Below, one piece after another: positions 20,213 to 40,553 of a stretch of DNA of 64,000 nucleotides. Position 1 is the first letter of the stretch. Each line of letters begins with the position of its first letter. Under the pieces are notes generated by a model. The model was given only the letters and a program-made list of their open reading frames with translations, searched no databases and was not told the DNA's origin. Location of the stretch: IMG/VR virus record IMGVR_UViG_2941446319_000001. One strand, written 5' to 3'. Source of the stretch: an uncultured virus (IMG/VR IMGVR_UViG_2941446319_000001). Lineage: Duplodnaviria; Heunggongvirae; Uroviricota; Caudoviricetes. A program made the position numbers and the translations under genes.

Positions 20213-21535
20213 TCACCCGCTGACCACGGCGAGCTGCCGAACACCCGGGGTTCGGGGGTGGCGCTCCACCAGCTCGGCGGCGATTCTCCGGATCGACGGC
20301 CTGTCTTGCACTTCGGCCGGCGCGTGCTGGTAGGCCGTCAGCAGTTCCGCCGCGGCCTGCTCAGGTTTGCCCCACTGCCACCAGGCGCGGGCGAGGTCGG
20401 TGTGGAGCCTTCCCCGCCGCTCGGGCGTGGAGAACATGCCGGTCCGCAGGCTCCGGGCGGCATGCAGGGCGGTCCCGGCGTCGCCTAGGGCGTAGTGGAT
20501 GTCCACGCGGTAGAGCGCCGCGAACGGCCTCATCGCCGGAATACGGGCGGCGGCACGCTCGGCCTCGGCGATCCCCTCCAGTGCCCGGTCACGGTCCCCT
20601 GCCCAGGCGCAGGTGTACGCGCGGGCACACAGGAGCCGCAGGTGCGTGGCGGCTTCGGATGTGGTGCGCAGCCCGGTCGTCGTCAGTTGGTCGACGCCCC
20701 TGGACATCACGGCGGTGGCGAGGTCGGGGCGTCCCTGGATACGCAGCATCATGCCCAGAGCTCGCGCTGAGGCCGCCTTGGCAACGGGGTCTTCGGATCT
20801 GTCGGCGTACAACATCGCTCGCTCCGCCGCGATCCGGGCAGAGGGCTTTTTGCCGATCTTGTTGAGGGTGTCGGTGGCCAGGTTGTAGCTCGCCGAGACC
20901 ATCACCCACCTCGTGGAGGTGTCAGCTTGCTCGGCCGCCTCCCGTGCCGATGCGAGCAAACCAGGCAGGGCGGCGATGAGGGCGGTCAGTTCGCTGGCGT
21001 CGAATTGGCGGCGCGCGGACCGGAGCATCTGGGCGAGTTCCGCCGGGCTGGCGGCGTGGTCCGCTTGCGGGGGCACCGCCAGGGCGTCGTCCAAGCGCTG
21101 GAGCAGTGACAGTGGGACGCTGAGCCCGGCTGCTGTGAGCAGTGTGCGACGCCGCATCGGATCGGTCCCCTCGTCGTGACTTCCATCATGCAGTGTAATC
21201 GTTTCATTGCTCTGTGTGACAGGTCTTAGGTGCTGGCGCGTTTCGGCAGGCGCAGACATCGCGGCGACGCCCACCATCGCTCGACCACCAATGGCCTCGC
21301 CCACGTCGGGCAGGAGTCCGAAGATCTGCGGCGGCAGGCCGAGGGCGGCGGCGAAGCGCCGCAGCACCGTCGTGTCACTCAAAGGGGCAACCCCGCGCTC
21401 GTAGCGGGAGACCTGCGAAATCGAGTACCCGGTCCGCTGCCCGAGATCGGCGAGCGTCAAGCCCTGAGCCTGCCGGGCAGACCTCACGACAGCACCGGCG
21501 GACCGTCTACCAGATGGATGCATCGGCTGCTCCAC
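20213..21535 (-). CDS. XRE-family regulator with C-terminal TPR-like helical domain
   Basis: ARQAQGLTLADLGQRTGYSISQVSRYERG; internal MRRRTLL; C-terminal PERRGRLHTDLARAWWQWG. Confidence 0.88.
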   Translation of the reverse strand: MEQPMHPSGRRSAGAVVRSARQAQGLTLADLGQRTGYSISQVSRYERGVAPLSDTTVLRRFAAALGLPPQIFGLLPDVGEAIGGRAMVGVAAMSAPAETRQHLRPVTQSNETITLHDGSHDEGTDPMRRRTLLTAAGLSVPLSLLQRLDDALAVPPQADHAASPAELAQMLRSARRQFDASELTALIAALPGLLASAREAAEQADTSTRWVMVSASYNLATDTLNKIGKKPSARIAAERAMLYADRSEDPVAKAASARALGMMLRIQGRPDLATAVMSRGVDQLTTTGLRTTSEAATHLRLLCARAYTCAWAGDRDRALEGIAEAERAAARIPAMRPFAALYRVDIHYALGDAGTALHAARSLRTGMFSTPERRGRLHTDLARAWWQWGKPEQAAAELLTAYQHAPAEVQDRPSIRRIAAELVERHPRTPGVRQLAVVSG

Positions 21536-21685
21536 ACGAGAGTCCCGGCCTCACCGTAACCCGCCTACGGGCCTGAGGCACGGCGGTTTGCAGAACACGC
21601 AAACCACTACCGCGACGTGCAAGAACGTCTAGCAGTGCACGCCGGTCCGGGGCTTGCTGGAACCAACCGGACCACAGGAGAGCAC

Positions 21686-22729
21686 ATGCTACCGACCCCC
21701 ACCGCGCCCGGCTTGAACCTCGCGGCGGCCACAGGCGGCGACTTCGCTCGCCGCGGCGGGCAACTGCGAGTCTCCCTCACTCCCCGCTGTCAACTCGGCT
21801 GCTGGTTCTGCCACAACGAGGGCGAGATTCCGCCACGCATCACCCACCACGACCGCGCCATCCAGCCCCGCCGCCGGGCGTTCAACGCCAGCGATTTCCT
21901 GACCGCGATCAACGCCATGACCTCCGCCGGGATCCGGCGCGTGTTCTTCACCGGCGGCGAGCCGCTGCTGTCCCCGCTGGCACGCCCGATCCTGCAGGGC
22001 CTGCCCGAGCATCAGATGAGCGACTACACCACCACGCTGATCACGAACGGTCTCACCCTCACCAAGGACCTCGACTGGCTGGCCGCCACCGCGCTGGACC
22101 GGATCAAAGTCTCGCTGCACTACTTCTCCGATGCCTCCATCGCCGCGATCGCCGAGGGAAAATCCGGCGACATCGCGAAGATCAAAGCCGGTATCGAGGC
22201 CGCCATCGACGTCATCCCCCTCGTGGAGCTGAACCTTCTCCTGCAGGAGCAGAACGCTCACGAGGTGATGGACATCATCTCCTACGCCCGCGAGCTCGGC
22301 ACCGGACTGCAGATCATCGAACTCGTCGACACCGACCACAACCAGGACCTGGGCGGCGCGAAGGTCCCATCGGCCGATATCAGCTCTCACCTCCGCTCGA
22401 TCTCCACCGCCGAGAAGGTGGTCACCTCCGGCACCGGCCAGGGGCGACGAGTCTTCACCGTCTCCGGCCAGCGCGGCGAGATGACCATCGAGGTCATCGA
22501 CGCCTCACTCGGCCGCCACCACGTCGGCCAGTGCACCACGTGCCCCAAGCGGTCGCAGTGCATCGAAGGCTTCTGGGCGCTTCGCCTGGACTCGGCCGGC
22601 GCCCTCAGCCCATGCCTGCTCCGCCCCGACTTGCGCCTGGACGTCACCCCGTACACGCAAGATCAGGCCGCGCTGCTGGCGGCCGTCTCCGCACACCTGG
22701 ACGCCTTCACCGAAGGGACGCTCTCGTGA
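21686..22729 (+). CDS. Radical SAM protein, MoaA-like
   Basis: AGGAG RBS; RVSLTPRCQLGCWFCHNEG (CX3CX2C); TGGEPLL; ITNG; C-terminal CTTCPKRSQC...LRLDSAGALSPCLLR. Confidence 0.88.
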   Translation: MLPTPTAPGLNLAAATGGDFARRGGQLRVSLTPRCQLGCWFCHNEGEIPPRITHHDRAIQPRRRAFNASDFLTAINAMTSAGIRRVFFTGGEPLLSPLARPILQGLPEHQMSDYTTTLITNGLTLTKDLDWLAATALDRIKVSLHYFSDASIAAIAEGKSGDIAKIKAGIEAAIDVIPLVELNLLLQEQNAHEVMDIISYARELGTGLQIIELVDTDHNQDLGGAKVPSADISSHLRSISTAEKVVTSGTGQGRRVFTVSGQRGEMTIEVIDASLGRHHVGQCTTCPKRSQCIEGFWALRLDSAGALSPCLLRPDLRLDVTPYTQDQAALLAAVSAHLDAFTEGTLS

Positions 22730-23412
22730 CCATCACCGCAACCCGCGGCATCAACAAGCCGCTTCCTGCCGCCTACCAGCCGGCCGCAACGCCCCGCTCG
22801 GGCATCTTTGTGGTCCTGGAGGGGATCAGCGGATCGGGCAAATCCACCCTCGCCGCCCACCTGGCCGCGCGGCTGGACTGCCAGTCCTTCCACACCGTCC
22901 CGGCCCCGGTCTCGGACCTGCAGCCGTACATCAACGCGAACGCCCGTACCCTGCCCCAACTGGCCTTCTACCTGGCAGGGGCGCTGCACGCCGCCGACCT
23001 GGCCCGCAAGGCGCTACAGCACGGGCACGCGGTCGCCGACCGCTACGTCAACTCTGTCATCGCCAACCACGCCGCCGTGCACGGCCTCGACAACGCCACT
23101 GTCATCGAGACCATCGCCCCCTTCGCCGGCTACCTGGCTGAGCCGGACCTGACCGTCTACCTGCACACCGACCTCGCGGAACTGACCGAGCGGATGGGCG
23201 CCAAGACCGACCAGACCGCCGCCGACCGCGACCTGATCGCCGACCGGGCCCTGCTACGACGACTCCAAGAGCGCTACGACCAGGTCGCCGACGACGACCC
23301 GACCGCCTACCACTTGCACACGGACGGCCGCACCCCGGATCAGCTCGCCGACCACCTCGCCAACATGGTCCACGCAGTGGCCAGCGTCCAGACGCCCCTC
23401 GCTCACATCTGA
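22726..23412 (+). CDS. dTMP-kinase-like nucleoside monophosphate kinase
   Basis: GTGA overlap with the radical SAM stop; P-loop LEGISGSGKST; DRY; PDLTVYL. Confidence 0.85.
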   Translation: MTITATRGINKPLPAAYQPAATPRSGIFVVLEGISGSGKSTLAAHLAARLDCQSFHTVPAPVSDLQPYINANARTLPQLAFYLAGALHAADLARKALQHGHAVADRYVNSVIANHAAVHGLDNATVIETIAPFAGYLAEPDLTVYLHTDLAELTERMGAKTDQTAADRDLIADRALLRRLQERYDQVADDDPTAYHLHTDGRTPDQLADHLANMVHAVASVQTPLAHI

Positions 23413-23498
23413 CAAGGCGACACGAACGGCCCGTGCTCCCCGCGCGCCCGCGATAGCGTCGGCCCCACGACGCATCGCCCACCGCGGGGAGCACGGCC

Positions 23499-23942
23499 AT
23501 GACCACCGAACCGTTTCGGCCCCACGTGGGCGTGCACCTGATCCTCATCCAGGATGGCAAGGTACTCCTCCTGCTGCGGGCCAACACCGGTTTCGCGGAC
23601 GGCTCGTGGTCGGTGCCCGGCGGCTGCCTGGATGCCGGCGAAACCTTGCCCGAGGGTGCGGCGCGCGAGGCCCGTGAGGAGCTCGGCATCGTCATCGACC
23701 CAGCCGACCTGGATTTCGCGCTGGTGTGTCACCACGCCGACCCCGACGGCCAGGCACGCATCGGCGTTTTCTTCGTCGCCACCCGGTGGACGGGAGAGCC
23801 GGTCAACGCTGAGCCGGGCAAATGCGACAAGCTCGACTGGTTCAGGCTCGACGACCTGCCCGACGACGTCGTCACCTACATCCGCACCGGCCTCACCGCC
23901 TACCGCGGCGGCCTTGCCTTCAGCCTCGACGGCTGGTCGTAG
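23499..23942 (+). CDS. Nudix hydrolase
   Basis: Nudix box GCLDAGETLPEGAAREAREELG; NAEPGKC. Confidence 0.92.
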   Translation: MTTEPFRPHVGVHLILIQDGKVLLLLRANTGFADGSWSVPGGCLDAGETLPEGAAREAREELGIVIDPADLDFALVCHHADPDGQARIGVFFVATRWTGEPVNAEPGKCDKLDWFRLDDLPDDVVTYIRTGLTAYRGGLAFSLDGWS

Positions 23943-24076
23943 GGGTTCGCGCGAAAGCCCATCGCCTGGCTGGAGAAATAGGCCCCGAAACGCGAATCAA
24001 CCCCCGCCTCTCCGGAGAGGTGCGGGGGCTGCTTCATGGAGGGCGACGGCTCCCGTCTGCTCCGACGATACGGCGG

Positions 24077-27741: not shown

Positions 27742-28104
27742 TCAGGCCGCCAGGTTGTAGGCGCTCTTCGGCTTGCTGGTCTGCCGCAGGAACACCGCCA
27801 CGCCAGCACCCACGAGCGACATGATGACCGCCGTCTTCTCCGGGGTGGCGTCCCAACCGAACGTGATCGCAGCCGAGATCGCAGCCTGAACGAAGCCCAG
27901 AATGGCCGCCTTGATGCTGCCGCCGTTGTCCGTGCTGCGGGTGGTGAACGCCATCCACACGCCCGCAGCGGCCAGCACAGCCGCGTTCACGCCAGCGGTC
28001 ATCTCCTCCGACCACGGCAGGAAGAACGCGGCCACGAACTGCACCACCATGGCCACGAACGTCGCGTACAGGACCGGCTCGCCGGTTAGCTCGTCACTCT
28101 TCAT
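27742..28104 (-). CDS. Holin-like membrane protein
   Basis: Four TM helices, EPV motif, downstream of endolysin. Confidence 0.7.
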   Translation of the reverse strand: MKSDELTGEPVLYATFVAMVVQFVAAFFLPWSEEMTAGVNAAVLAAAGVWMAFTTRSTDNGGSIKAAILGFVQAAISAAITFGWDATPEKTAVIMSLVGAGVAVFLRQTSKPKSAYNLAA

Positions 28105-28209
28105 GCGCCCCTCCAAGGGGTGAGGCCCGCACTCGGCGGGGGGATTTGGGAATGCGAAAGGGCGGCCCACATCTGGTGGACCACCCGAGGAAAAGACAGG
28201 TGTGTGCGG

Positions 28210-28935
28210 CTACTTGCCGAGCGCGCCGAGCTTGGCGAGGATCTCGTCCTGCTTCGCCTCGATCCGGTCCAGCCGCTGCTGGGTCCGGTCCTGCTCCGTC
28301 TCCAGCTCCTGCAGAAAAGCCGCAGGCGAACGCTCCGACTCGGCGTCCTCACCCTTGTTCATCTTGATCCGGGCGTCGTGCCAAAAGGCGTTAACGTCCA
28401 TGTCGTCGTCCTCCTCGATGGCCTGTGAGCCGCTGGGGCCCTTGGTAAAGGTGCCGTCCCGGACGAGCCGGTACAGGCTGTCCCCGGGGCAGGAAGTGCT
28501 GTAGAAGTCGCGGTGGCCCTTCACCGCGCCGGCGACGCCCTTCGACATCAGCCACGCGCGCAGGCCGCGCACCGCCTCAATCTGAGCGGCCGTGGGCTTC
28601 TCGCCAGGGCCGGACATGAGCGTCACGCTGTACCAGTCGGCGTTGCCGCCCGGCTGTGCCGCCTGGATCCGGTCCAGGCCGCGCCCCTCGAACACCTTGC
28701 CGTGCGGGCACGCCCCCCACGAGTAGCCGATGTCGGCCCATCCACGGTTCGACCCCATGTGGAACTTCCGGGTGCGACGCCAGTAGTCCACGCAGGACGC
28801 GTGCGGCTTGCCCGCCAGGTTCTGGTCAGAGCCGTCGTAGTGGATGACTAGCCCGCGCGTGGGACGTGCGGTCGAAGCGCCGGAAGCGCCCCACCCGAAC
28901 TCGCTGCGCTTGATCAGCTGCATGTTCCAGGTCAC
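28210..28935 (-). CDS. Endolysin, N-acetylmuramoyl-L-alanine amidase (PGRP/Amidase_2)
   Basis: LVIHY, GWADIGYS, FEGRG, GHRDFYSTSCPG. Confidence 0.92.
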   Translation of the reverse strand: MTWNMQLIKRSEFGWGASGASTARPTRGLVIHYDGSDQNLAGKPHASCVDYWRRTRKFHMGSNRGWADIGYSWGACPHGKVFEGRGLDRIQAAQPGGNADWYSVTLMSGPGEKPTAAQIEAVRGLRAWLMSKGVAGAVKGHRDFYSTSCPGDSLYRLVRDGTFTKGPSGSQAIEEDDDMDVNAFWHDARIKMNKGEDAESERSPAAFLQELETEQDRTQQRLDRIEAKQDEILAKLGALGK

Positions 28936-29276
28936 CCCTGTTTCTGATGCTCTCGACGCTTAGCGCGCCAGGTCCGGATGATGATGGTGAGCCTCCACGC
29001 GAGCACGACCGGGACGCCGCTGAAAGCGATCAAGCGCAGGGCGACGAACCACCGCCCGTCCGGGACCGCCAACCGCAACGCCCACAGCGACAGACACACC
29101 GCCAGCACAAGCTGAAACGCCATCACATGCCTGCCGGACGGCGTCTCCCACCAACGGGCCAGCAGCGCCTGAGCCGCCACACACGCGACAGCCAGCAGCG
29201 CCGACACCAGCACCAGTACGGTCCCCACCAGATAGGCGGTCCCGTCAAGCACGGCTACCACCCCCAAAAGCGTCAT
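28932..29276 (-). CDS. Putative holin
   Basis: Three TM helices, WWETPSGRHVM, coupled to endolysin. Confidence 0.75.
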   Translation of the reverse strand: MTLLGVVAVLDGTAYLVGTVLVLVSALLAVACVAAQALLARWWETPSGRHVMAFQLVLAVCLSLWALRLAVPDGRWFVALRLIAFSGVPVVLAWRLTIIIRTWRAKRREHQKQG

Positions 29277-29457
29277 CGAACAGCTCCGAGAATCCGTTCG
29301 CCTCCCGCAGGCGCCGCAACCTGGCTGCGATCGAGCGGGCGCGTGCCGCCCTCTCGCGGGCCAGCCTCAGGTCCTCTTCGGCGCGCTGCCGGGAATCCTC
29401 GGCCGCACGTCTGGCCTCGTCTATGTCCGGCAGCCTCTCGTCCTCGTGGTCGTTCAC
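29245..29457 (-). CDS. Small lysis-cassette protein
   Basis: Coiled ORF ending LREANGFSELF; overlaps both neighbours. Confidence 0.65.
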   Translation of the reverse strand: MNDHEDERLPDIDEARRAAEDSRQRAEEDLRLARERAARARSIAARLRRLREANGFSELFDDAFGGGSRA

Positions 29458-29807
29458 GATCCGGCCCCGATTTGCCGCGACCGGATCTCAGCCAGGAGTA
29501 CGGCAGCCACTTGGGCTCCTTCCGTGGAGGCCAGCAGCGCCGCCCGGATCTCTTCGGCGTGCGCACGGCGCGTCAGTTCGTGCGCCTCGCACTCGCGCAC
29601 GTACAAGGCCCGCCACTCGTCGGCGTCAGCGTTCGCCTCAGCCACCCGGGCGTCCCGGTCGGCCCGCACGTCATCGAGGGTGGCGCGGGTGGCGAGCGTG
29701 GACGGCACGAGGTGGCCCTTGAACACCATCCAGCCGACCAGCCACAGCACGCCGAGCAGGACGCCGAACGCCCCCAACTGCACGACGGGGATCTGCGTCC
29801 ACTCCAC
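29454..29807 (-). CDS. Membrane protein of the lysis cassette
   Basis: One TM then GHLVP and a coiled coil. Confidence 0.7.
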   Translation of the reverse strand: MEWTQIPVVQLGAFGVLLGVLWLVGWMVFKGHLVPSTLATRATLDDVRADRDARVAEANADADEWRALYVRECEAHELTRRAHAEEIRAALLASTEGAQVAAVLLAEIRSRQIGAGS

Positions 29808-29915
29808 TCACAGCCTCCAACAGAAGAAAAAGGGGGGCTGACATGGGGAAAGGTGGTGGCCGCCCGTGCCCTTGGGGGCGCATCAAGCCCTGCGCGGGCG
29901 GCCACGATCGAGGGG

Positions 29916-30323
29916 TCAGGCCATCAGCCCGACCGCCCGCAGCGCGGCGCGGAGGTCCAGGCCGAAGGTGCGCAGCATGGTGAGGTCGTCCTGCACTGCC
30001 TCGCCGTTGGCGCGGTTGTAGGTCTCCGGCCACGAGTTCGGCGTGGACAAGCCCGACATGCCGCCTACATCCGCTGCCTGAGGTACCGGCTGCGACAGCA
30101 GCGAAGTGGTCGTGCCGGAGGAGTCTTTCCAGAACGGTTCCCCGGCGGTGGCGAACAGATGCCCACCAGCGGCGGGTGTGGACGGGCTGGCCACGTTGCC
30201 GATCACCCAGCCTTGCGAGGCGGTCGTGAGGCCGGACCGCTGATGCAGCAAAGCCTTCAGTTCAGCCACTTCGGCTTGGAGCTTGCGGATGTCGGCGAGA
30301 ACGTCACCCGGGTACTTGTCCAT
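29916..30323 (-). CDS. Minor tail / tail-tip-associated protein
   Basis: Position after the Tal-like gene; N-terminal coiled coil. Confidence 0.6.
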   Translation of the reverse strand: MDKYPGDVLADIRKLQAEVAELKALLHQRSGLTTASQGWVIGNVASPSTPAAGGHLFATAGEPFWKDSSGTTTSLLSQPVPQAADVGGMSGLSTPNSWPETYNRANGEAVQDDLTMLRTFGLDLRAALRAVGLMA

Positions 30324-32146
30324 CAGGCCACCTCCAACCCCTCGAAGATCAGTTGCGCTTCTTCTTTGCCGGACTGCTTGCTCGTCGGGGTGATGCCGAT
30401 GCCGATGATCCGCCTGACCCGGCTATGGGGCAGGTGCCATTCGTTGTTGAAGTACAGGCGTGCCTGATCCCCGAGACTGTTCGGGGTGAAGGACGGCTCC
30501 GCCCCCAACGCGACCGTCACCGAGTCCACCCGCAACGCGCCCGCTGCTGTCGCCGCCCAGTAGGTGGCGTAGTCGTCCAGCGTCTGCTGCACGATCACGG
30601 AGTTGTAGTTGAGCGTCCGGTCCAGGCGAGGCCAACCGGCGCTGAGATGCGCTGCGGCTTCTGCCGGCGCCGACATGAGCGGGGTCGAGGTGGTGGAGGC
30701 GTCTGCCGCCTCGGCCGGGTCGATCCCGCCACGTGCCCGCCAGATGGTGCCGCCGCGGAGCGCGTCGAGTTCTTCGTCCAAGTCGAGGATGTCGCCGCCG
30801 TTCGGCGAGTCGACGAACACGTGCTCGACGCCCGCTGATCCAAGCGTCGGGTATCCCCACACCCAGTGCCGTTCCACTCCCGCTGCCCCGAGCACGTGGT
30901 TGATCGTCCACTCGAACCCGTTGTCGAGCTGGGCGAGTTCGAGGAGGCGCTGCCCGTAGGTGGCTTCGTCCGGCTTGTAGGTGTGGTCTCGGACGACGCC
31001 GGACGTGCCCTCCTGCAGCACCAGGTTGAGGCTGGCGTGCAGCTGCCCCTGCATGTGCTGGATCAGGGACCGGGCGATGTCGATCTGGTCGTCGCCGACG
31101 TACTCCAGCAACTCCTGCAGCTCGACGTGCAGCAGGTAGGCATCCATAGTGGATCCGCGCAGCTGGATCGTCGGGGTGCTGCCGCGGGAACGGCCAGTCT
31201 TGGTCGCGGTGATCCAGTACTCGCCCCAGATGGCGCCGTCGCGGTAGATCTCGCAGGTGATCACACCAGGGCCAATGGACAGGTCGGTGATCCCGCCTGT
31301 CCCCTCCTGGTCCCGTGGGATCACTCGGCCGACCCGTTGGGCGACCGTCCGGTTCGGTACCGCGATCTGCGCGGAGAACGTGCCCGCCTGCAGAAGCCGC
31401 TTGTCGAAGCGGACGTTGGACAGTTCGAGGTCGTCCAGGTAGGTGCCGCCCCAGTCCCGAAAGACGTACCGGTACTGCGACGTGCCCACGCCCGGCGTGA
31501 ACGGCGGCGGCGGATCCGGGACCGGCCCCAGGACGGCGGACCCGATCGAGATGGACACGCCCAGCCCGAACCGGGTACCGGTCGGAGCGACCCCGAACGA
31601 CTTCAAGCCGGACGCCGTACTGGAGTTCAGCTGCCGGCTGGCCGCCGCCGAGGCGATGAACCCGGCCGGCGCGTTGATGGTGCCGCGCATCTGATAGTTC
31701 GACGGCGCCGTGAACGTCACAGCCGTCGGGAACGAGCTCGTACAGCCCGCCCTGATCTCCAGGTGCGACGCAGACGCCGGGCTCACCGACGGGGTGACGA
31801 GCGTCTCGGCGAAGTTCAGCGCGAACTGAACCTTCGGCGCGGAGGTCGTGTCGGCGTCCTTGACGCAGATCACGTGCATGGTGCCGTCAGCGTTGATCGG
31901 CTGCCCGAACGTGTACTGCGACGATTCGCCGCCCGTCGCGACTTTGCGCAGCACCCGGCAGGCCATCTCGTCGGCGTTGCGGCTGGCCGTGTTCGTCCAC
32001 CCGGAGGAGTTCACCCCGGACAGGCCCGAGTCGCCGAAGTAGATCGCGATCAGCAGGTCGCCCGCCTGCACCCCGGACGGGCGCTGGACGATGATGGGGC
32101 CGCCCTGTTCGGCGCCGGTCGAGGAGGAACGCACGCTAGCAGCCAC
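30323..32146 (-). CDS. Minor tail (Tal/hub-like) protein with extra N-terminal beta domain
   Basis: N-terminal RPSGVQAGDLLIA domain; C-terminal YRDGAIWGEYWI, LAQLDNGFEW, AGWPRLD typical of actinophage minor tail proteins. Confidence 0.75.
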   Translation of the reverse strand: MAASVRSSSTGAEQGGPIIVQRPSGVQAGDLLIAIYFGDSGLSGVNSSGWTNTASRNADEMACRVLRKVATGGESSQYTFGQPINADGTMHVICVKDADTTSAPKVQFALNFAETLVTPSVSPASASHLEIRAGCTSSFPTAVTFTAPSNYQMRGTINAPAGFIASAAASRQLNSSTASGLKSFGVAPTGTRFGLGVSISIGSAVLGPVPDPPPPFTPGVGTSQYRYVFRDWGGTYLDDLELSNVRFDKRLLQAGTFSAQIAVPNRTVAQRVGRVIPRDQEGTGGITDLSIGPGVITCEIYRDGAIWGEYWITATKTGRSRGSTPTIQLRGSTMDAYLLHVELQELLEYVGDDQIDIARSLIQHMQGQLHASLNLVLQEGTSGVVRDHTYKPDEATYGQRLLELAQLDNGFEWTINHVLGAAGVERHWVWGYPTLGSAGVEHVFVDSPNGGDILDLDEELDALRGGTIWRARGGIDPAEAADASTTSTPLMSAPAEAAAHLSAGWPRLDRTLNYNSVIVQQTLDDYATYWAATAAGALRVDSVTVALGAEPSFTPNSLGDQARLYFNNEWHLPHSRVRRIIGIGITPTSKQSGKEEAQLIFEGLEVA

Positions 32147-32175
32147 GACTGCACCCCCGAACGGTGGAATCGGAT

Positions 32176-33249
32176 TTACAGCCAGGCGTCCCGGTACAGC
32201 GCCACGGCCAGGTCGCCGCCCGCGTCGCCGCTGTAGGTGACCCGGTTCGTTCCGGGTCTCAGGGTGAAGTCGACGATCGGCGCGGACGTGCCGGTGATGG
32301 TCGAGGTGACCGGCTCGCCGCCCACGGTGGCGGTGCCCTCAAACGTGTTGATCACCAGTTGTTCACCCGCGAGGACGTCGAGGGCGAACGCCAGCGTCCT
32401 GCCGGTGTCGGCGTTGGCGAAGGTCGGATTCGTGACCGGGCCATCCACGCGGATCCGAGGATGCGTGGAAGTGTTGCCCGCGTTCGACAGCACCGTCTGA
32501 ATGCCGACCGGCACGTTCACGCCGGTCTGCTCGATGTTGTACCGGCGAGGATCCGCGCACGCGATCAGCACCGTCACGGTGGGCAGGCCGGCGTTGTAAT
32601 CGCCATCCATGTCCACATCCCGGTCGATCACCTGCCCGTAGGCGACCTGCGGATCGCCGTACCCTCTAACCACCAGAGGCAGCGGCGCCTCAGACTCGGG
32701 CAGGCCGGTGACCAGGTCGATCTGCGTCAGCATGTCGTCGATCTGGCTCGGGTTGGATCCCGAGTTGGGTTGCAGCCGGAGGGTGACGAGCCGCTGCTGG
32801 GAGAGTTTGCGGCCATCCCACGCGCCATGCTGGGCGGGCCGGGCGACGTTGAGGTTGTCCACCTGCGGCAGGCCCCGCCACCCTTCTACCGGCAGCAGCA
32901 CGGCCACGTCCGTGCCGGGCCCCCACAGCGTGTAGTTCCACTCCACCTGCCCGGCCGTGGTGACGAGGTCGCCTGCGACAAGCGGGATCGTGACCGTGAT
33001 CGCCGGCCACTCGCTGACCGTCTCGAAGGCGGGCAGCGTGAAGTTCTGGTCGAACGCCAGCGTCAGCGCCGGCCACTCCGAGAGGGTCTCGAACGGACCG
33101 AGGAACAGGTTGACGTTCGGGGTGGTCACCGTGACCGGCGGCCACTCGCTGACCGTCTCGAAGACGGGCAGCGCCACATCGACCTGCAGCGTGTACGGCG
33201 CCCTGACCACGATCGGACGGTTCGGCCTGGCGCGGCCTAGACGAGCCAC
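32176..33249 (-). CDS. Distal tail (Dit-like) protein with N-terminal repeats
   Basis: ACADPRRY, NAGNTSTHPRIRVDGP, LRPGTNRV, YRDAWL; three FETxSEWP repeats. Confidence 0.75.
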   Translation of the reverse strand: MARLGRARPNRPIVVRAPYTLQVDVALPVFETVSEWPPVTVTTPNVNLFLGPFETLSEWPALTLAFDQNFTLPAFETVSEWPAITVTIPLVAGDLVTTAGQVEWNYTLWGPGTDVAVLLPVEGWRGLPQVDNLNVARPAQHGAWDGRKLSQQRLVTLRLQPNSGSNPSQIDDMLTQIDLVTGLPESEAPLPLVVRGYGDPQVAYGQVIDRDVDMDGDYNAGLPTVTVLIACADPRRYNIEQTGVNVPVGIQTVLSNAGNTSTHPRIRVDGPVTNPTFANADTGRTLAFALDVLAGEQLVINTFEGTATVGGEPVTSTITGTSAPIVDFTLRPGTNRVTYSGDAGGDLAVALYRDAWL

Positions 33250-33262
33250 CCGCCACCCCCCA

Positions 33263-33967
33263 TCACCAGTTGGCGGCGCGGCGAACCGCGGCAGTCGACA
33301 CGACCGGGCGCCGGGTCTGCGGCACGCCCGCCGACGCGACCGCGATCGTGAACCCGTGCCGGAAGCCCAACGTGAGCAGCGACGTGAAATTGAGTGACCC
33401 GGTCGCAGCCCCGGATGTGAGCTGCTTGGACGCGAGAGCGCCCGTGCTGTTGCCGCCCGCCTGCAGATCGGCTTCTTCGGTGTAGGTGGCGGGGACCGTC
33501 CAGGTGATGGTCTCGAAGTCCGGCTGACCCGACACCCACCGCAGTTCCAGGTCGTCATCCCCTGCCGGGGTAATGCCGGGCGACGGCACCGACGTGGAGA
33601 ACGCGTCATTCCCGGTCTGGGCGACCACCGGCGTCAGCGCCGTGTTCGCGCCCATCACGGCCGCGATCGCGATCACGCCCGTGCTGCTGCTGTTCTGCGT
33701 GAACCCGTAGTTCGCCGGCTCACTACCGCCTGCGACCTTCCACCAGATTTTCGTCTTGTTGTCGTAGTCGGTCCCCGAAGCTCGGGTCGCCAGCGACTCC
33801 CACGTGGCACCACCCGTCGGGGTGCCCATGTTCGCCAGCGTCCCCTGGACCATGCTGTGGCAGGCGATCAGCACGTCCCCGGAGACCGCACCGGTCGGCT
33901 TGGTGACGTTGATCGACCCGACCGCGTCAAGCAGGCCGGACGACACCGCGCGCACGCTTGCGGGCAT
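33263..33967 (-). CDS. Virion structural protein (beta-rich domain)
   Basis: KPTGAVSGDVLIACH..WWKVAGGSEPANYGF..SVPSPGITP. Confidence 0.65.
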   Translation of the reverse strand: MPASVRAVSSGLLDAVGSINVTKPTGAVSGDVLIACHSMVQGTLANMGTPTGGATWESLATRASGTDYDNKTKIWWKVAGGSEPANYGFTQNSSSTGVIAIAAVMGANTALTPVVAQTGNDAFSTSVPSPGITPAGDDDLELRWVSGQPDFETITWTVPATYTEEADLQAGGNSTGALASKQLTSGAATGSLNFTSLLTLGFRHGFTIAVASAGVPQTRRPVVSTAAVRRAANW

Positions 33968-34435
33968 CTAGCACCGCTCAAACCACATGGCGGCCCGCAG
34001 GGCGACCGCGTCCGCAGACGTGCACCGGACCGCGAACCCCTCACCCAGCGGCGAATCCGGGGTGTCACCCAGCGGCCAGTCGTACATGACCAGCCCACCA
34101 TTCGGCGACAGCAGGAACTCCTCCAGCACCGTCACCACCGTCGGCACGCTCGTCCAGTTCGACGCGGCCAGAAACCCGGTCGCGGCATGCCGGCCGTACA
34201 CCTGCCGCGGCGTCACGGGCGAGGAGTTGGTGCCGGGCGCGTTCGTGGCGAACGTGACAGCGCACAACTCCACCAGCGTCGGCGCGTCGGTCGCGTCTAC
34301 GCCGTTGAACCCGATCCGGAGCTTCTTCAGGTCCACGCCGTACTCGGTCCCGGCCTGCACGCCGAGCACGTACTTGAGCGTCGAGGCGACCAGGGACACC
34401 GAACCCGACGTAACGACGTAACCGCTTTTGGCCAT
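33968..34435 (-). CDS. Putative virion structural protein
   Basis: Tightly packed in the tail operon. Confidence 0.6.
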   Translation of the reverse strand: MAKSGYVVTSGSVSLVASTLKYVLGVQAGTEYGVDLKKLRIGFNGVDATDAPTLVELCAVTFATNAPGTNSSPVTPRQVYGRHAATGFLAASNWTSVPTVVTVLEEFLLSPNGGLVMYDWPLGDTPDSPLGEGFAVRCTSADAVALRAAMWFERC

Positions 34436-34436
34436 G

Positions 34437-34754
34437 TCAGTGCACCACGATCAGAACGCGAATGCCGGAAAGGACCTGGGAGCCGGGGTTGTGCGCCCAG
34501 AGCCGGAAGTGACTCATCTCCAGCCGAAATTCGGCACCAGCGGCCAGGACGTAGCCTGCATCTGCCAGTCCACCTGGATTTGCCGTCATGTTCATCTCGC
34601 CGCCGAGGTAGACGGGGCCCTCTGAGAAGTTCTGCACGATGACCAGGTGGCGCGGTGTGTACTCGGGGAGCATGTTCAGCCCCACCACCTCGCGGTACAG
34701 ATCCTTGTAAGCGTTTAGGCCCACACTGAGGCTGTTCTGGAAGATCCGCATCAT
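34437..34754 (-). CDS. Hypothetical tail-region protein
   Basis: AAGGAG RBS plus ATG. Confidence 0.6.
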   Translation of the reverse strand: MMRIFQNSLSVGLNAYKDLYREVVGLNMLPEYTPRHLVIVQNFSEGPVYLGGEMNMTANPGGLADAGYVLAAGAEFRLEMSHFRLWAHNPGSQVLSGIRVLIVVH

Positions 34755-34809
34755 GCTCCTTACATGCGAAAACCCCCGCACGCTGGCGAGGGTGGAAGGT
34801 CGAAAGTGG

Positions 34810-35274
34810 TTAGGCCGCGGTGCGCCACACGGAGCGCCATACGCCGTCAGCATTGAAGGTGACGTCGAAGCTTCCGTCCTGAGATGCGTATTCTTGCCCG
34901 AGGTCGCGGAGCAGCACGGCCCTGTTGGACAGGCCCGGCACGTAGATGAGCAGGCCCCGGGCGGAGATCGTCGCCGACGTCCAGCCGATCGCCGACATCT
35001 TCCAGCCGATCTTGTTGGCCGCCGTCAGCTCCGCGAACGAGGTGACGGTCAGATTGACGCCACCCGCCGTATAGCCGGGCCCTGACGTCTCGTTCGCGTC
35101 GTACGGAGACGCCCCATAAGCCGGGCTCACCTGCGAAAAGTCCGGGGTCAGCGCCTCCTCGAACAGCGCCGCCTTGAACGTGCCCGGAGTCGTATTCGAC
35201 AGATCGAGCGCGATCGTATTCGACAACGCTGCGATGATCGTGTCGTTGAACCAGCCGTCCTGCGTGATCGCCAC
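34810..35274 (-). CDS. Virion structural protein, paralog of 58043-58504
   Basis: KAALF..TPDFS..ANETSGPGYTAGGVNLT. Confidence 0.7.
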   Translation of the reverse strand: MAITQDGWFNDTIIAALSNTIALDLSNTTPGTFKAALFEEALTPDFSQVSPAYGASPYDANETSGPGYTAGGVNLTVTSFAELTAANKIGWKMSAIGWTSATISARGLLIYVPGLSNRAVLLRDLGQEYASQDGSFDVTFNADGVWRSVWRTAA

Positions 35275-35284
35275 CGTGCGCCCC

Positions 35285-35524
35285 CTACCTCAAATTGATG
35301 CGCACGTCGCGGTGGTAGCCGCCGCGCTCGTCGGTTCGTTCGGTCACCACGTGACCGTTCTGGTCCATGACCCGCTTCTCTCGGGGCGTGTCCACCAGCA
35401 CCTGATCGCGGGTGGCGGACGTCCGCTCACCCGTCACCACATCCACGCTGCGGCCCTCACCGAGCGGCTCACCGCCCCGCATGTAGGCGCCAAAAGGCAC
35501 ACCCGACTCCGGATCCCAAGGCAT
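35285..35524 (-). CDS. Small protein, paralog of 58719-59003
   Basis: ATRDQVLVDTPREKRVMDQNG. Confidence 0.65.
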   Translation of the reverse strand: MPWDPESGVPFGAYMRGGEPLGEGRSVDVVTGERTSATRDQVLVDTPREKRVMDQNGHVVTERTDERGGYHRDVRINLR

Positions 35525-35564
35525 GGCTGAACCCGCCCTCCTACTCGAATGTTGAAGGGCGGGC

Positions 35565-38500
35565 TTAGCCGCGCCCGCCGAGATGCATGCTGGCCTGCGC
35601 GAACAACACCGCGGCGTCCGCGCTCTCCCGCACTACCAGGTCCGGGAACGTGACCGTCTTGTTCACCACCGTCGAAGCACCAGCCGCCCCGCCCGGGCCA
35701 GCGCTGCCGCCACCGGGCGGTGTCGCATACCCGCGGGAAGGGCCCCGCTGGGGGGCAGACACCCGAGACGAGTTGGCCGGCGCACCCATCGACCCGGCAG
35801 AGGGGCCGGACACGAACTTGCCGCCGAAATCGCTCGCCACCTGTGACACCAGATCCATCGCCCGATCACGGAACGCGGGATCGTAGGGAATGAACGCCTC
35901 CGGCCCGTTGCCTTCGCCGTACAGGATCGTCGGCGAATCGGCGATGTGCGGGGCAGGAGTGGCACGCCCACCCGAGGCGAACTTCTGTAGGCCGCCCTCG
36001 GCGTAGCGCATGATCGCACCAGCCGCCAACTGGCTGTTCTTCGTGTAGACATGCAGCGGGATCTTGCGACCGCTGTTGAGCTTGACGAAGTTGTCGATGG
36101 CCTCCTGCGCCGGCTTCACATCCGCGCCGACCCGAATGTCCTTCGACTTCAGCTTGGCCAGGACTTCGACTAGGTTTTGGCCGCCCTTCGCAGCCTTGAT
36201 CGCGTCGGACTCGGAGATGCCGTACGCCTTGGCCAGCTCCAGCACCTGATTGCGCGCGGCCTCATTCTTCCCAGCCAAGTCGATCATCGCCGGGAGCTGC
36301 CGCAGCACCGCGTCACGTGCCTCGGTGGTCCTGCCCGTAAGCGTGACCTGGCCCTCCGCCGACAGGCGGACCTTCTCGACGTACCCGGCGAAAGCGTCAC
36401 GCGCCTGGATGACTGCGTCACGCTGTGCGGCAGTGAGACCGGGCGTCAACGTCAGCTTGCCGTTGGCGCCGTCGATCGCCGTCTTGGCGTCGTTGAACGC
36501 CTTCTCCATGTCGCGCACGGTGGCGGCGGCGTCCGTCTGCGAGTTGAACTCGTCCAGCGACGCCCTAAAGACGCCCAGCCGTTCGGCCGCTTGGCCAATC
36601 TCGCGTTGTGCCCCGTTCACCTGCCCGCCCAGCAGTTCCACTGCCGTGCCGACTGCTCCGGTAGTCGCCGGGATGCCGTCCATCGACGCGGCGTACTGCG
36701 GAAAGAGATCTTTCAGCTTCTCCACCGGCGTACCGGCTGCGATCGCCTGATCGGCGAGCCGCTTGAAGGTGACGGCGGCCTGCTCTGCGTTGCCGCCGGC
36801 GACCAGCTTGGACAGGGACGCGTCGAAGTTGTCGACCGCCTGCTTACCGTTATCAAGCTGGATGCCAAGTGAGGAGTCGATCGTGTCGCCCAGAGTGTGC
36901 ATGAACCCGAGGATCGGATTGTCGCTCGACAGCCGGGCGGCCGAATCGGCGAACGTTTCGATGCCGCCGGTCAGCCCCGCCATCTTGGGGGCGAGCTGAT
37001 CGAGCACATCCTGAGTGGCCTGGCCGCTCTCGCCGAACTTGGCAAGGTTGGTGGCGAGCTTGTCCAGGTCCGGGTTAAGGCCAGCCGCCGCGTCGCCGAT
37101 CTGGTCGAACGCGATCGCGACGCCCGCCACAGTGGCAGCGATCAGGCCGCCCTTGCCGAACACCCCTGCCAGGTTGGCGAGTTTGCTCTGGGCTCCCCCG
37201 GCCTTCTTGCCCGCCCCCTCCACGGCCTCGCCGAAGCTGCTGAAGAAGCCAACGGCACCGCTGACGGCCTGGAAGCCCTTCACCGCGACGACCACGGCGG
37301 CGATGGCGACCGCCAGCGCCTGGATCTGGCCGGGGCTCATCTGGCTGAGCACCTCGGCCAGGAGGACGAACGCGCCAAGCTTGAGCGTCGTTCCGAGCTT
37401 GGCGGCGGCAAAGATCAGGCCGATGCCGGTGGCGATCGCTTGGATCTGGCCAGGGTCGAGGTCCGCCAGCTTCTCCGACAGTTGCACGAAGAAGTCCAGC
37501 GCGCCTGGGCCAACGTCCGCCCCGACCTGCACGATCTTGCCTGCAAAGGTGGCGATGTTGCCGAAGATCTCCGCAACCTTCGGCCCGTTCTCGCGGACGT
37601 AGGCGATGAACGCCTCAAACTCGGGCGACCCGTCGAGGGACTGCCCCCAATCCTCGAACTCCTGGGTGATGTCCTCCAGGTTGTCCATCAGTTCGTCAGT
37701 GAACGGCAGGAACGCCTGCACGATGCCGGTGAGCCCGCCGGCCACGTTCAGAGCGCTGTCGCCGAGCCCGTCGATGGCGCGCGGCGCCTGCTCGGTCAGG
37801 TCGCGGAAGAAGCTCTGCCACTGCTCGGACTTCAGCTCCTTGTTGGCCTGCTTCAAGAAGTCGTCGAACGCTGCCGCACTGGCCTTGACCAGCGGGGTGC
37901 TGGTCTTCATGCCGGTCGACATCAGGTCCATGCCGCTGCGGATCGCCGGGAACACGTCCGGCTGCAGGCTCCGCTGCCACGCGACGTAGCCGTCCTGGAA
38001 CGCCTTGACGTCCTTGGCCAAGGCTCGCTCGGCCTTGGACAGCTCCGCCATCTTGGAAGCGGCACCGCCAGCAGCCCCGCCAGCGGATTCCATCGCGGCC
38101 TTCTGCTGCAGCTTCAACACGGTGAGCTGCTTGGACGCCATCGCCAGGTCGGTCTCGGCCTTCAAGAGCTTGTCCTGCGCGGCCCGAACCTGGTCGGATC
38201 CTTCGACGCCGGCCTTGGCGGCTTCCTTCTGGTCTTCCTTCAGGCGCTTCGTTCGGACGGACTGCTCTTCCAGCCGCTGCACCGACATGCGGTAGTTGAG
38301 TTCGGCGCGCTTGACGTCGAGCTCGTCGGAGTCGGGGTCGGTCTGCACCTCGGCGAGTCGCTGCCGCGCCTCTTCCACCGACAGCGCTGCGTCCTGCTCC
38401 GCGAGTGCGGCGTCCTTCACCGACAAGGTGAGGTCGTCGAGCGCCCGCTTGGCGTCCCGTCGTGCCCGCGTCAGGTCTTCCTGGGCCTGCTTGACGCCCT

Positions 38501-39602
38501 TCTGGGCGTCGGCGACCCTGCGCTCGGCCTGCTCCAGCTGGAGCGCGCGGGAGGCTGCTTCGGCCGCGGACTGGCCCGCGCTCTTCGTCGCCCCTCCGGC
38601 GCCACCAGCGGCGGACGCCTGCTGCTTGAGTGCCTCATTGATGCGCCCGAGGCTCGGCACGGCAACCGCGGCGAAACCCGCGGCGCCCGCACCTGCGGCG
38701 GTGAAAGCTGCGCCGAGCACGCTCACGCCAACCGCGATGGACGTCACCGCGGGCAGCGACGCCAGCGCGGCGCCCACCATCGCGATTGCGGACAGGGCTC
38801 CGCCCACGTCCGCGTCCACGTTGATCCGCGCGGATCTGCCGCTGACCGACGACAGCGATGACTCCAGCGCACGCAACTCCGAGAGTGCCTGCACGGTGTC
38901 GACCTGGACGTCGATGTCCGTGGTGGAAGTGTTCAGCCGCTGCAGTTCCCGCTCGATTGCGGCGATTTCCGTTCGAGCGGCAGCAGCGTCCAGGTCGATG
39001 CCGATGCGGCGGCCGTTGAGTTCGGCCATCCGCGCCTTGAGCTCTTCAAGCGCAGTGCGGGCCGGATTGACGTCCACGTCGGGCGTGATCGGCTCCGGCT
39101 CGCCCAGCTTGTCGATCTCCCGCTGCAGAGCCTGCAGCTGGGTGAGAGCGGCCATTGTGTCGGCGCGCACGTCGATCTCAGCCGACTCAGACAGGCGGTC
39201 CAGCGCGAGGTGGAGGTTGGCCATCTCCGCGAGGGCGGACCCTGCGTCGATGTCGAGGCCGATCTGCTTCGACGACAGGGTTTGCAGGCTGGCGCGAACC
39301 TCTTGCAGCTTCTGTCGCGCTTCTGAGGCGTCGGCGTCCAGCTCGGCTTTTGGAAGGCTCTTGAACGCGGCTTCGAGACGACGGGAGAACGCCTTGGCGA
39401 AGGCGCCGGCGATCTGATCGCCCTCTTTGGGCGCCTGCCGCTTACGCTTCTGCTGTTCGCGGTCGTACGGCTCGAACGGGTCCCCCGACCCGTCACCGAG
39501 CCCATCGCGAAACTTCTTAGCTGCCGCTTCGGCCTTGGCCATCGCGGCGATGAACGACTTAACATCGGCCGTCAGCTTGACCGTTACAGATCTGTCAGCC
39601 AC
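35565..39602 (-). CDS. Tape measure protein
   Basis: About 1345 aa, Ala-rich helical; starts ADRSVTVKLTAD; C-terminal FASGG..GEGNGPEAFIP; follows the tail chaperones. Confidence 0.93.
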   Translation of the reverse strand: MADRSVTVKLTADVKSFIAAMAKAEAAAKKFRDGLGDGSGDPFEPYDREQQKRKRQAPKEGDQIAGAFAKAFSRRLEAAFKSLPKAELDADASEARQKLQEVRASLQTLSSKQIGLDIDAGSALAEMANLHLALDRLSESAEIDVRADTMAALTQLQALQREIDKLGEPEPITPDVDVNPARTALEELKARMAELNGRRIGIDLDAAAARTEIAAIERELQRLNTSTTDIDVQVDTVQALSELRALESSLSSVSGRSARINVDADVGGALSAIAMVGAALASLPAVTSIAVGVSVLGAAFTAAGAGAAGFAAVAVPSLGRINEALKQQASAAGGAGGATKSAGQSAAEAASRALQLEQAERRVADAQKGVKQAQEDLTRARRDAKRALDDLTLSVKDAALAEQDAALSVEEARQRLAEVQTDPDSDELDVKRAELNYRMSVQRLEEQSVRTKRLKEDQKEAAKAGVEGSDQVRAAQDKLLKAETDLAMASKQLTVLKLQQKAAMESAGGAAGGAASKMAELSKAERALAKDVKAFQDGYVAWQRSLQPDVFPAIRSGMDLMSTGMKTSTPLVKASAAAFDDFLKQANKELKSEQWQSFFRDLTEQAPRAIDGLGDSALNVAGGLTGIVQAFLPFTDELMDNLEDITQEFEDWGQSLDGSPEFEAFIAYVRENGPKVAEIFGNIATFAGKIVQVGADVGPGALDFFVQLSEKLADLDPGQIQAIATGIGLIFAAAKLGTTLKLGAFVLLAEVLSQMSPGQIQALAVAIAAVVVAVKGFQAVSGAVGFFSSFGEAVEGAGKKAGGAQSKLANLAGVFGKGGLIAATVAGVAIAFDQIGDAAAGLNPDLDKLATNLAKFGESGQATQDVLDQLAPKMAGLTGGIETFADSAARLSSDNPILGFMHTLGDTIDSSLGIQLDNGKQAVDNFDASLSKLVAGGNAEQAAVTFKRLADQAIAAGTPVEKLKDLFPQYAASMDGIPATTGAVGTAVELLGGQVNGAQREIGQAAERLGVFRASLDEFNSQTDAAATVRDMEKAFNDAKTAIDGANGKLTLTPGLTAAQRDAVIQARDAFAGYVEKVRLSAEGQVTLTGRTTEARDAVLRQLPAMIDLAGKNEAARNQVLELAKAYGISESDAIKAAKGGQNLVEVLAKLKSKDIRVGADVKPAQEAIDNFVKLNSGRKIPLHVYTKNSQLAAGAIMRYAEGGLQKFASGGRATPAPHIADSPTILYGEGNGPEAFIPYDPAFRDRAMDLVSQVASDFGGKFVSGPSAGSMGAPANSSRVSAPQRGPSRGYATPPGGGSAGPGGAAGASTVVNKTVTFPDLVVRESADAAVLFAQASMHLGGRG

Positions 39603-39734
39603 CCGACACCTCCTCATCGAAGGGCCGAAAGCGGCCGAATCGGGGACTGGTCAGGGGATGTCGTGGGATCGTGCCAACCGGGCCACCAAGTGGCGCGTCC
39701 TACGCGCGCACATCCCTCTCCCCAGGAGCCACAC

Positions 39735-40181
39735 GTGAGCCAGTACGGACCTCAGGACGACCGGCCTTACCCCCAGCAGCCGCCGCAGCCGTACGGGCAG
39801 ATGTACAGCCCGCCGCAGACGCCGCAAGGGCCCACCAGTCATGCCGCGCCGCGGCACAGCCAAGGGCTCGCCATCACGTCGCTGGTGATGGGGGTGGCCG
39901 GCTCCGCCCTCGCGCTACTGCCAGCGCTGCGCGGTGTAGGCCTGGTCGTCGGCTTCGCGGCCGTGGTCCTCGCCATCGTTGCGCTCGCCGCCAAAAGCCA
40001 GGGCGGCAAGATGTTCGCCGCGGGCGGCTTAGCCCTCGGCTTCGCGGCGCTGCCGATCGCAGTCGGCCTCTACATGCTGAGCGCCAGCCAGGAGCGCGGC
40101 AACCTGCAGCAGCAACAGCAGATCGAGGAGTGCATCCTCGCCAACCCCGAGACGGCGCTGGAGTGCGCCGGCCTGGAGTAG
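39735..40181 (+). CDS. Antisense moron: three-TM membrane protein (DUF4190-like)
   Basis: AGGAG RBS plus GTG; P/Q-rich N-terminus, GLAITSLVMGV, three TM helices. Confidence 0.75.
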   Translation: MSQYGPQDDRPYPQQPPQPYGQMYSPPQTPQGPTSHAAPRHSQGLAITSLVMGVAGSALALLPALRGVGLVVGFAAVVLAIVALAAKSQGGKMFAAGGLALGFAALPIAVGLYMLSASQERGNLQQQQQIEECILANPETALECAGLE

Positions 40182-40182
40182 G

Positions 40183-40518: not shown

Positions 40519-40553
40519 GATCGACCTGGGCAGCCCGTACGCGGCGGCGAGCG

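Follow-up and report, generated by a model that had tools for sequence, protein, structure and literature searches.

The 64,000-nucleotide stretch of the uncultured-virus record IMGVR_UViG_2941446319_000001 (hereafter, the window) is high-GC actinomycete DNA, and its closest protein relatives come from Nonomuraea. Within the window, a minus-strand regulator gene diverges from three plus-strand genes that encode a radical S-adenosylmethionine (SAM) enzyme, a P-loop kinase and a Nudix hydrolase. Do these genes form a functional unit, and what might such a unit make? An earlier note on the window had read all four as a regulated cassette, where the radical SAM enzyme makes a modified nucleotide, the kinase activates it and the Nudix hydrolase detoxifies it, possibly in superinfection defence, DNA modification or transfer-linked signalling. 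Its interpretation as a whole is partly supported. The open reading frames (ORFs) are where it had placed them, and the three plus-strand genes constitute one co-conserved, horizontally mobile module, whereas the regulator belongs to the locus in the window and not to the conserved module. The three genes of the module are the following:

21686..22729, plus strand: radical SAM enzyme of 347 amino acids (aa) with a CX3CX2C-HNEG motif, an auxiliary CX2CX5CX17C motif and a MoaA/AbmM-like fold
22726..23412, plus strand: P-loop kinase of 228 aa with a thymidylate/deoxynucleoside kinase fold (PF02223, PF01712)
23499..23942, plus strand: Nudix hydrolase of 147 aa, MutT/NUDT1-like, its Nudix box intact (PF00293)

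A co-conserved and mobile three-gene module

When one genome per species was scanned, relatives of the radical SAM enzyme were found encoded in 143 stretches; the locus counts given below refer to the best 80 of these 143. Most of the 80 loci belong to Streptomyces, and other genera represented are Nonomuraea, Sphaerisporangium, Actinomadura, Sphaerimonospora, Actinacidiphila, Catenulispora, Streptacidiphilus, Wenjunlia and Saccharomonospora. A kinase homologue is located directly downstream of the radical SAM gene in all 80 loci, and a same-strand Nudix gene lies downstream in 75 of them. Since the gene arrangement recurs in 80 out of 80 loci, it is not a matter of chance. The earlier note had named the conservation of this neighbourhood as a check on its reading, and the trio is indeed co-conserved. 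Its claim of translational coupling also stands: the GTG start codon of the kinase gene (22726-22728) overlaps the TGA stop codon of the radical SAM gene (22727-22729) in the sequence GTGA.

Four architectures were distinguished, in which R is the radical SAM gene, K the kinase gene, P a gene for a 165-aa phosphomutase-like protein, S a gene for an STM4013-family hydrolase, and Na and Nb the genes of two Nudix types:

R-K-P-S-Nb: 58 of the 80 loci
R-K-Na, the form found in the window: 12 of the 80 loci
R-K-Nb: 5 of the 80 loci
R-K-P-S without a downstream Nudix gene: 5 of the 80 loci

Among the five loci of the last type, three end at a contig edge within 2 kb and one has an opposite-strand Na, so that only one (L055) is truly without a Nudix gene. 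The window-type Nudix Na follows the kinase in 12 loci, and the other type, Nb, in 63. The two share only 32% identity over 81 aa, so that two Nudix lineages fill one slot. The S protein scores 343.6 bits against the STM4013-family cut-off of 250 and is an alkaline-phosphatase-type hydrolase; it is characteristic of the Streptomyces form, the three-gene form of the window being without it. The P protein has a phosphomutase-like match (1.2e-11), and several loci have P and S as a fusion.

The same three genes delimit what the window shares with its relatives. A 10-kb query around the cassette has DNA homology in two congeners over 21491-23942 and 21739-23936 only, i.e., over the trio, and the Nudix stop codon is the exact end of the block common to the congeners. 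Distribution of the radical SAM gene is patchy: 6 out of 110 genomes of the genus and two out of 72,556 plasmid records have it. Among 50,697 phage records none holds a true family member, the four matches being Listeria moaA-like proteins with 23-24% identity.

One plasmid copy has a setting of its own: on a 172-kb linear plasmid of Streptomyces albidoflavus (L085, 1-4173), the cassette has the five-gene form, with type I-E cas3/casA at a distance of about 5 kb and lasso-peptide B2 genes next to it.

Family placement of the enzymes

The longest ORF of the radical SAM gene opens at GTG 21617. However, the start codon is likely ATG 21686, because it is preceded 6 nt upstream by a GGAGAG ribosome-binding site and database homologues are 347 aa long. 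In agreement with the earlier note, the protein has a CX3CX2C motif, extended as CX3CX2C-HNEG, and a C-terminal cysteine cluster. The latter comprises four cysteines spaced CX2CX5CX17C, and both motifs are invariant in 17 aligned family members. The family C-terminus reads ...EGTL(S), with no terminal GG.

The enzyme had been described as MoaA-like, and NCBI records name it either simply 'radical SAM protein' or, wrongly, 'MoaA'. MoaA (GTP 3',8-cyclase) likewise has two 4Fe-4S clusters, and its defining features are a three-cysteine CX2CX13C motif and a C-terminal Gly-Gly. Both are present in the true MoaA of the genome, which is encoded on another contig, has an auxiliary CX2CX13C, ends in IGG and scores 365.4 bits against a cut-off of 284. 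MoaA models are also the best NCBIfam matches of the cassette enzyme (1e-36 to 1e-38), yet all fall under their equivalog cut-offs (131.8 vs 325.25, 127.7 vs 231 and 126.1 vs 284.05 bits). Profile alignment indicates that R17 of MoaA is kept, whereas R71, N124, D128, K163 and R192, which we take to be triphosphate or ribose ligands, are replaced by F, K, H, E and Q, respectively. As the earlier note had stated, no other molybdenum cofactor (Moco) genes accompany the cassette: none was detected among the 39 window ORFs in a Pfam scan reaching 33.6 kb, nor by PHROGs, nor among the recurrent neighbours in the 80 related loci. MoaA identity was therefore rejected on account of scores far below the cut-offs, a different auxiliary motif, placement in a separate clade and the presence of a true moaA elsewhere.

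Structural and profile comparisons point to two neighbouring families. With an AlphaFold model of the enzyme (predicted local distance difference test score 80.4, predicted template-modelling (TM) score 0.83), the best Foldseek match is MoaA (1.4e-15, TM score 0.67), followed by BlsE, AbmM (8wm2, 2.8e-9, TM score 0.58), maturases of ribosomally synthesized and post-translationally modified peptides, DesII and viperins. A single-sequence search returned AbmM first (7.9e-10) and then MoaA. The family profile matches Staphylococcus aureus MoaA at 86.7 bits in the N-terminal barrel only, and AbmM at 61.4 bits (6.8e-16) in two stretches that include the C-terminal cysteine motif. AbmM has the same FCHNEG sequence after the cysteines of the SAM cluster, an identical CX2CX5CX17C spacing, and the same LRL and PCL landmarks, although the overall similarity is weak. 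The nearest solved relatives, MoaA, AbmM, BlsE, DesII and viperins, all act on nucleotides or nucleoside sugars.

In a profile search covering 1.84 billion cluster representatives, the family forms a tight group (511, 357 and 312 bits), and the next scores are at about 150 bits; these next relatives are all MoaA-like proteins scoring under the MoaA cut-offs. The best 150 representatives gave 128 full-length proteins, of which 69 have an AbmM-type auxiliary spacing, 47 a MoaA-type spacing, none both and 12 neither. When 131 proteins were placed on a FastTree with the MoaA of the genome itself as root (one quick tree with no bootstraps, AbmM itself being left out), the family (support 99) falls inside an 81-row clade (support 87) that contains all 72 rows with the AbmM-type motif and none of the 47 rows with the MoaA-type motif. 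Judged by motif and tree position, the enzyme thus appears to be AbmM-type, and the description as MoaA-like holds at the superfamily level only.

The kinship with viperins that the earlier note had drawn upon is not borne out. The enzyme scores 39.9 bits against the cut-off of 180 for the viperin model NF038283, and its PADLOC pVip match (45.6 bits) covers the N-terminal core only. Viperin identity was rejected on that score and on the presence of the four conserved C-terminal cysteines, viperins being single-cluster enzymes.

The AbmM-type proteins as a group form an unnamed radical SAM clade that accounts for 69 of the 128 full-length nearest representatives and shares the motifs CX3CX2C-H-x-E-G and CX2CX5C-x-EG-x2-A-[LI]-R...PC. 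All of its members that were scanned score under the MoaA cut-offs, and 66 AbmM-type representatives compared with PADLOC gave weak partial pVip cross-matches only. A metagenome scan with five aligned sister-clade proteins found 31 loci, none with a kinase matching the cassette-kinase profile; the scan is uninformative on the sister families, as its classifiable loci are mostly archaeal-type MoaA-like (10 with the MoaA-type motif, 3 with the AbmM-type motif and the rest with neither). The source genome also has a second MoaA-like paralogue (L082, G000:C4:335162-336070), which scores 167.5 bits against a cut-off of 284, contains CNLDCVFC, lacks the auxiliary motif of either type, MoaA or AbmM, and lies 1.2 kb from a weak radical SAM match.

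The kinase matches PF02223 (3.1e-14) and, more weakly, the deoxynucleoside kinase family PF01712 (1.4e-6). It scores 69.6 bits against TIGR00041, under the cut-off of 83.25, and in the Protein Data Bank (PDB) it matches thymidylate kinases at about 1e-6. The Nudix hydrolase matches PF00293 (4.6e-20) with an intact GX5EX7REUXEEXGU box, and its best PDB match is 4dyw (5e-18), followed by NUDT1/MTH1 entries.

The S protein, a true STM4013/SEN3800-family hydrolase encoded beside a radical SAM gene, connects the Streptomyces form of the cassette with the STM4011-STM4015 cassette of Salmonella, Deinococcus and others. The remaining components differ, as the radical SAM proteins STM4011 and STM4012 are unrelated to the cassette enzyme and STM4014 is unrelated to the phosphomutase-like protein. 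Five-gene STM4015-STM4011 cassettes, comprising two radical SAM proteins, the STM4013 hydrolase and two proteins of unknown function, were observed on Deinococcus and Salmonella plasmid records (L088 3932-9055; L089 4056-8928). Our literature search found no paper on the function of the STM4011-STM4015 cassette.

Predicted function and competing explanations

The reading that we favour, with confidence evenly balanced, is that the trio is one operon, a mobile minimal cassette whose product is a nucleotide or nucleoside analogue with a modified sugar, with the Nudix hydrolase serving in self-protection and/or maturation. Starting from the observed gene order, translational coupling, co-conservation and family placement, we propose a scheme in which the substrate, the chemistry, the product and the role of each enzyme are predictions. 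The kinase would phosphorylate a nucleoside or nucleoside monophosphate (NMP), either supplying the substrate or cryptically activating it. The radical SAM enzyme, with its two clusters, would then abstract a hydrogen from the ribose and rewrite the sugar. Because the auxiliary cluster is AbmM-type, a sulfur-for-oxygen swap giving a 4'-thionucleotide is our leading guess, dehydration or cyclisation also being possible. The MutT-like Nudix hydrolase may remove pyrophosphate from the analogue triphosphate, sparing the polymerases of the producer and shifting the analogue towards the free nucleoside. The phosphomutase-like protein and the STM4013-family hydrolase of the Streptomyces form would complete the dephosphorylation; the joint presence of P, S and a Nudix gene in the majority form suggests stepwise dephosphorylation towards a nucleoside.

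The closest characterised analogue, likened by gene content and described function, appears to be thmA-C of Photorhabdus asymbiotica. The thm report describes a radical SAM enzyme, a nucleoside kinase homologous to AbmG and a nucleoside triphosphatase, whose genes always co-cluster while their flanks vary between genomes; the three genes suffice for the production of 4'-thiothymidine in Escherichia coli, and thmC alone confers resistance (PMC12691670). Both systems consist of three adjacent genes for a radical SAM enzyme, a nucleoside or nucleotide kinase and an enzyme that hydrolyses nucleoside triphosphates (NTPs), and in both the trio stays together amid variable flanks with no transporter. 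The make-activate-detoxify logic of the earlier note thereby gains a precedent, in which the hydrolase gives the producer resistance. The two differ in that thmA-C occurs in Gammaproteobacteria and the cassette in actinomycetes; ThmA is reportedly unlike AbmM, whereas the cassette enzyme shares AbmM motifs; and ThmB is of the AbmG/deoxynucleoside kinase type, whereas the cassette kinase is nearest to thymidylate kinases. The cassette would follow the three-part logic of thmA-C while being built from different families.

Other precedents cover single components. According to the same report, AbmM performs a sulfur-for-oxygen swap using its own Fe4S4 cluster, and the kinase AbmG acts through cryptic phosphorylation (PMC12691670). 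AbmM therefore resembles the cassette enzyme in having a kinase-type partner, and it acts on a nucleotide-type substrate; on the other hand, it sits in a large siderophore-nucleoside cluster, whereas the cassette is a three-gene operon with a Nudix gene. A tailoring Nudix enzyme, TubG, is described for tubercidin synthesis (PMC6112128). We found no published description of a radical SAM-kinase-Nudix cassette.

Several observations weigh against synthesis of such an analogue. The AbmM profile score (61.4 bits) is lower than that of S. aureus MoaA (86.7 bits), and more than 150 other cluster representatives outscore AbmM. ThmA is reported to lack similarity to the radical SAM enzymes of albomycin synthesis, including AbmM (PMC12691670). 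No conserved transporter or resistance-target gene was found beside the cassette in the 80 loci. Both partner enzymes match PADLOC candidate-defence models, namely PDC-M51B (3.3e-22) and the viperin-associated kinase VakA (7.3e-12) for the kinase and PDC-S07 (2.7e-11) for the Nudix hydrolase. Finally, an integrase lies on one side of the cassette in the window and a prophage lysis module on the other, and such a mobile or accessory setting would suit a defence role as well.

Defence is the main alternative to be weighed, and we regard it as possible, if doubtful. Under this explanation, the regulator would release the operon upon infection or entry of an element, and the radical SAM enzyme and kinase would flood the cell with a toxic analogue. 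The chain-terminating or otherwise toxic compound would stay inside the cell and block the replication of phages or plasmids, with the Nudix hydrolase limiting self-harm or resetting the pool. The PADLOC matches of the kinase and the Nudix hydrolase speak for such a viperin-like module, as do its patchy distribution and mobility, its position in the window between an integrase/FtsK-like block and a prophage, and the Streptomyces plasmid copy about 5 kb from cas3 and casA. A linkage between viperins and kinases is documented as well: a preprint gives a kinase neighbour for 12% of bacterial viperins (10.1101/2023.09.13.557418), compared with 80 out of 80 cassette loci. The pVip/VakA viperins share with the cassette a radical SAM gene adjoining an NMP-kinase-type gene, and a modified nucleotide is expected in both cases. 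However, the cassette enzyme fails the viperin score, has an auxiliary cluster and is accompanied by a Nudix hydrolase, and the AbmM-type representatives show no more than weak partial cross-matches to pVip. The PDC-M51 component A was not matched by any of the four window proteins, the proteins of the Streptomyces operons or the 66 related radical SAM proteins. The flanks in the 80 loci consist mostly of ordinary regulators and metabolic genes, and the family has no members in the 50,697 phage records. Moreover, the three phosphate-removing enzymes of the majority form fit the maturation of a nucleoside better than the build-up of a triphosphate.

A variant of this explanation, which we rate as rather improbable, is that viperin-like immunity arose independently from the MoaA/AbmM branch and is carried on actinomycete prophages and islands. 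In that case, 4'-thio or otherwise sugar-rewritten NTPs, made by the kinase and an AbmM-type radical SAM enzyme that donates sulfur, would poison the polymerases of invaders, and the Nudix hydrolase would act as a safety valve.

A housekeeping or cofactor pathway, quite unlikely in our estimate, could provide a modified purine or pterin precursor, could supply the modification of tRNA or DNA with one, or could repair damaged nucleotides, with the kinase and the Nudix hydrolase contributing salvage and pool sanitation. MoaA is the best NCBIfam and the best fold match of the enzyme, and Nudix enzymes and NMP kinases are typical of pool maintenance. Nevertheless, the scores are far under the MoaA cut-offs while a true moaA exists elsewhere in the genome, the presumed ligand positions of MoaA are replaced, and no moaC-type, Moco, queuosine or modification genes lie alongside the cassette either in the window or in the 80 loci. 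A gene present in only 6 out of 110 genomes of the genus is ill-suited to a housekeeping role.

The suggestion that the Nudix gene stands on its own, serving an integrative element in Pif-like conjugal immunity and placed beside the radical SAM-kinase pair by chance, finds some support in the integrase, GntR regulator and 909-aa FtsK/SpoIIIE-like protein encoded upstream in the window but is barely credible and largely refuted by the co-conservation of the Nudix gene with the radical SAM and kinase genes, as it follows the kinase in 75 of the 80 loci, no homologue of the integrase, FtsK-like or WhiB genes of the window occurs in those flanks, and the DNA block shared with the congeners ends at the Nudix stop codon. 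The earlier ideas of conjugal immunity and virion-DNA modification are likewise unsupported: these window genes recur beside no other cassette.

If the trio does make a sugar-modified nucleoside, as we favour, the genomes of at least 143 actinomycete species would carry a compact and easily expressed route of three to five genes to an unknown compound of this kind. Such compounds, for example thionucleosides and ddh-nucleotides, are drug leads. The formula of radical SAM enzyme, kinase and NTP hydrolase, recently proven for 4'-thiothymidine, would then have arisen more than once from different families. The comparison also marks out the AbmM-type proteins as a large unannotated radical SAM clade, with a known reaction for one member only.

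Regulators and genomic surroundings

The remaining features of the locus, outside the three-gene module, are as follows:

20213..21535, minus strand: regulator with an XRE-type helix-turn-helix (HTH) and a C-terminal domain of about 290 aa (Pfam, PHROGs)
21586..21606, no strand assigned: inverted repeat, candidate operator, with perfect 7-bp arms (GGTTTGC-N7-GCAAACC)
24001..24026, plus strand: GC-rich hairpin 59 nt past the Nudix stop codon, a weak candidate without a T-run for the possible transcript end
27742..64000 and onward over L087 1-20000 (G000:C2:947578-967577), minus strand: prophage (PHROGs)

The earlier note had called the regulator an XRE protein with tetratricopeptide repeats (TPR). 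The XRE part is confirmed by an HTH at residues 14-71 (PF13560, 9.8e-13; PF01381, 5.5e-10), and the C-terminal 290 residues match the phage regulator family phrog_5823 (1.5e-35). The TPR label is unproven, since no Pfam TPR model matches the protein and the TPR-like stretch near residues 375-408 was seen by eye only. Homologues of the regulator adjoin the cassette in only four of the 80 loci (L005, L009, L010 and L012); other loci have other types of regulators, and thus the inclusion of this gene in the cassette had to be given up. A palindrome TTTGC...GCAAA occurs at the matching place in L010 and L009, which carry the same type of regulator, whereas L005 and L012 have CATTG-type repeats in its place. 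By inference only, the GGTTTGC-N7-GCAAACC repeat is a candidate operator. A scan for consensus promoters and terminators found none at the operon ends.

Regulators are the recurrent neighbours of the cassette in the 80 loci. These include NsdA-family TPR-like proteins (20 loci), XRE-HTH proteins of about 420-480 aa (17 loci), anti-sigma-like HATPase proteins (23 loci), and an HTH-DUF5753 protein with DUF6879. Pairwise comparison of the window regulator with the NsdA-family protein of the Streptomyces loci detected no similarity. Among nucleotide enzymes, an HD 5'-nucleotidase-like protein is encoded nearby in three loci and a second Nudix hydrolase in four. Relaxase/MobC genes occasionally lie beside the cassette, and the remaining neighbours are ordinary metabolic genes. 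None of the integrase, nuclease, GntR, FtsK-like, WhiB, sortase or lysis genes of the window recurs beside the cassette in these loci.

The cassette sits in a variable region of the genome: only the first ~1.1 kb of the window is syntenic in close relatives, and, in two relatives, the DNA flanking this syntenic gene corresponds to other contigs of the source genome. Upstream, Pfam and PHROGs assign to 7747-18865 an integrase (7747-8730), a secreted SNase-Excalibur nuclease, an HTH-DUF5753 regulator and a GntR regulator; a 521-aa protein without a family match, the FtsK/SpoIIIE-like protein and a WhiB protein are encoded in the same block. An integrase together with a GntR regulator and an FtsK/SpoIIIE-like protein is typical of actinomycete integrative conjugative elements, and the set resembles either such an element or the lysogeny side of a prophage. 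Between the cassette and the lysis genes, 25179-27242 encodes a 295-aa protein, a sortase and a Phd/YefM-like antitoxin, beside which no toxin was identified. In a search for attachment sites, no 16-mer direct repeat was found to join 3-9 kb with 26-84 kb, and a tRNA search of the window returned none.

Downstream, a siphovirus-like prophage occupies the minus strand, beginning with lysis genes (27742-29276) and followed by tail, head and terminase genes. It continues for at least 20 kb past the window to a total of more than 56 kb, the far end not being reached. Its late genes encode holin/endolysin, tail proteins, a 1350-aa tape measure protein, and major tail, head, portal and terminase proteins, while its early genes encode an antirepressor, a single-stranded DNA-binding protein, a Toprim/AAA primase-helicase, a WhiB protein and a C5 DNA methylase. 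In the early region, ARAGORN additionally predicts a tRNA-like gene (L087 557-631, minus strand) whose anticodon has four bases (cttg) and whose amino acid is undetermined.

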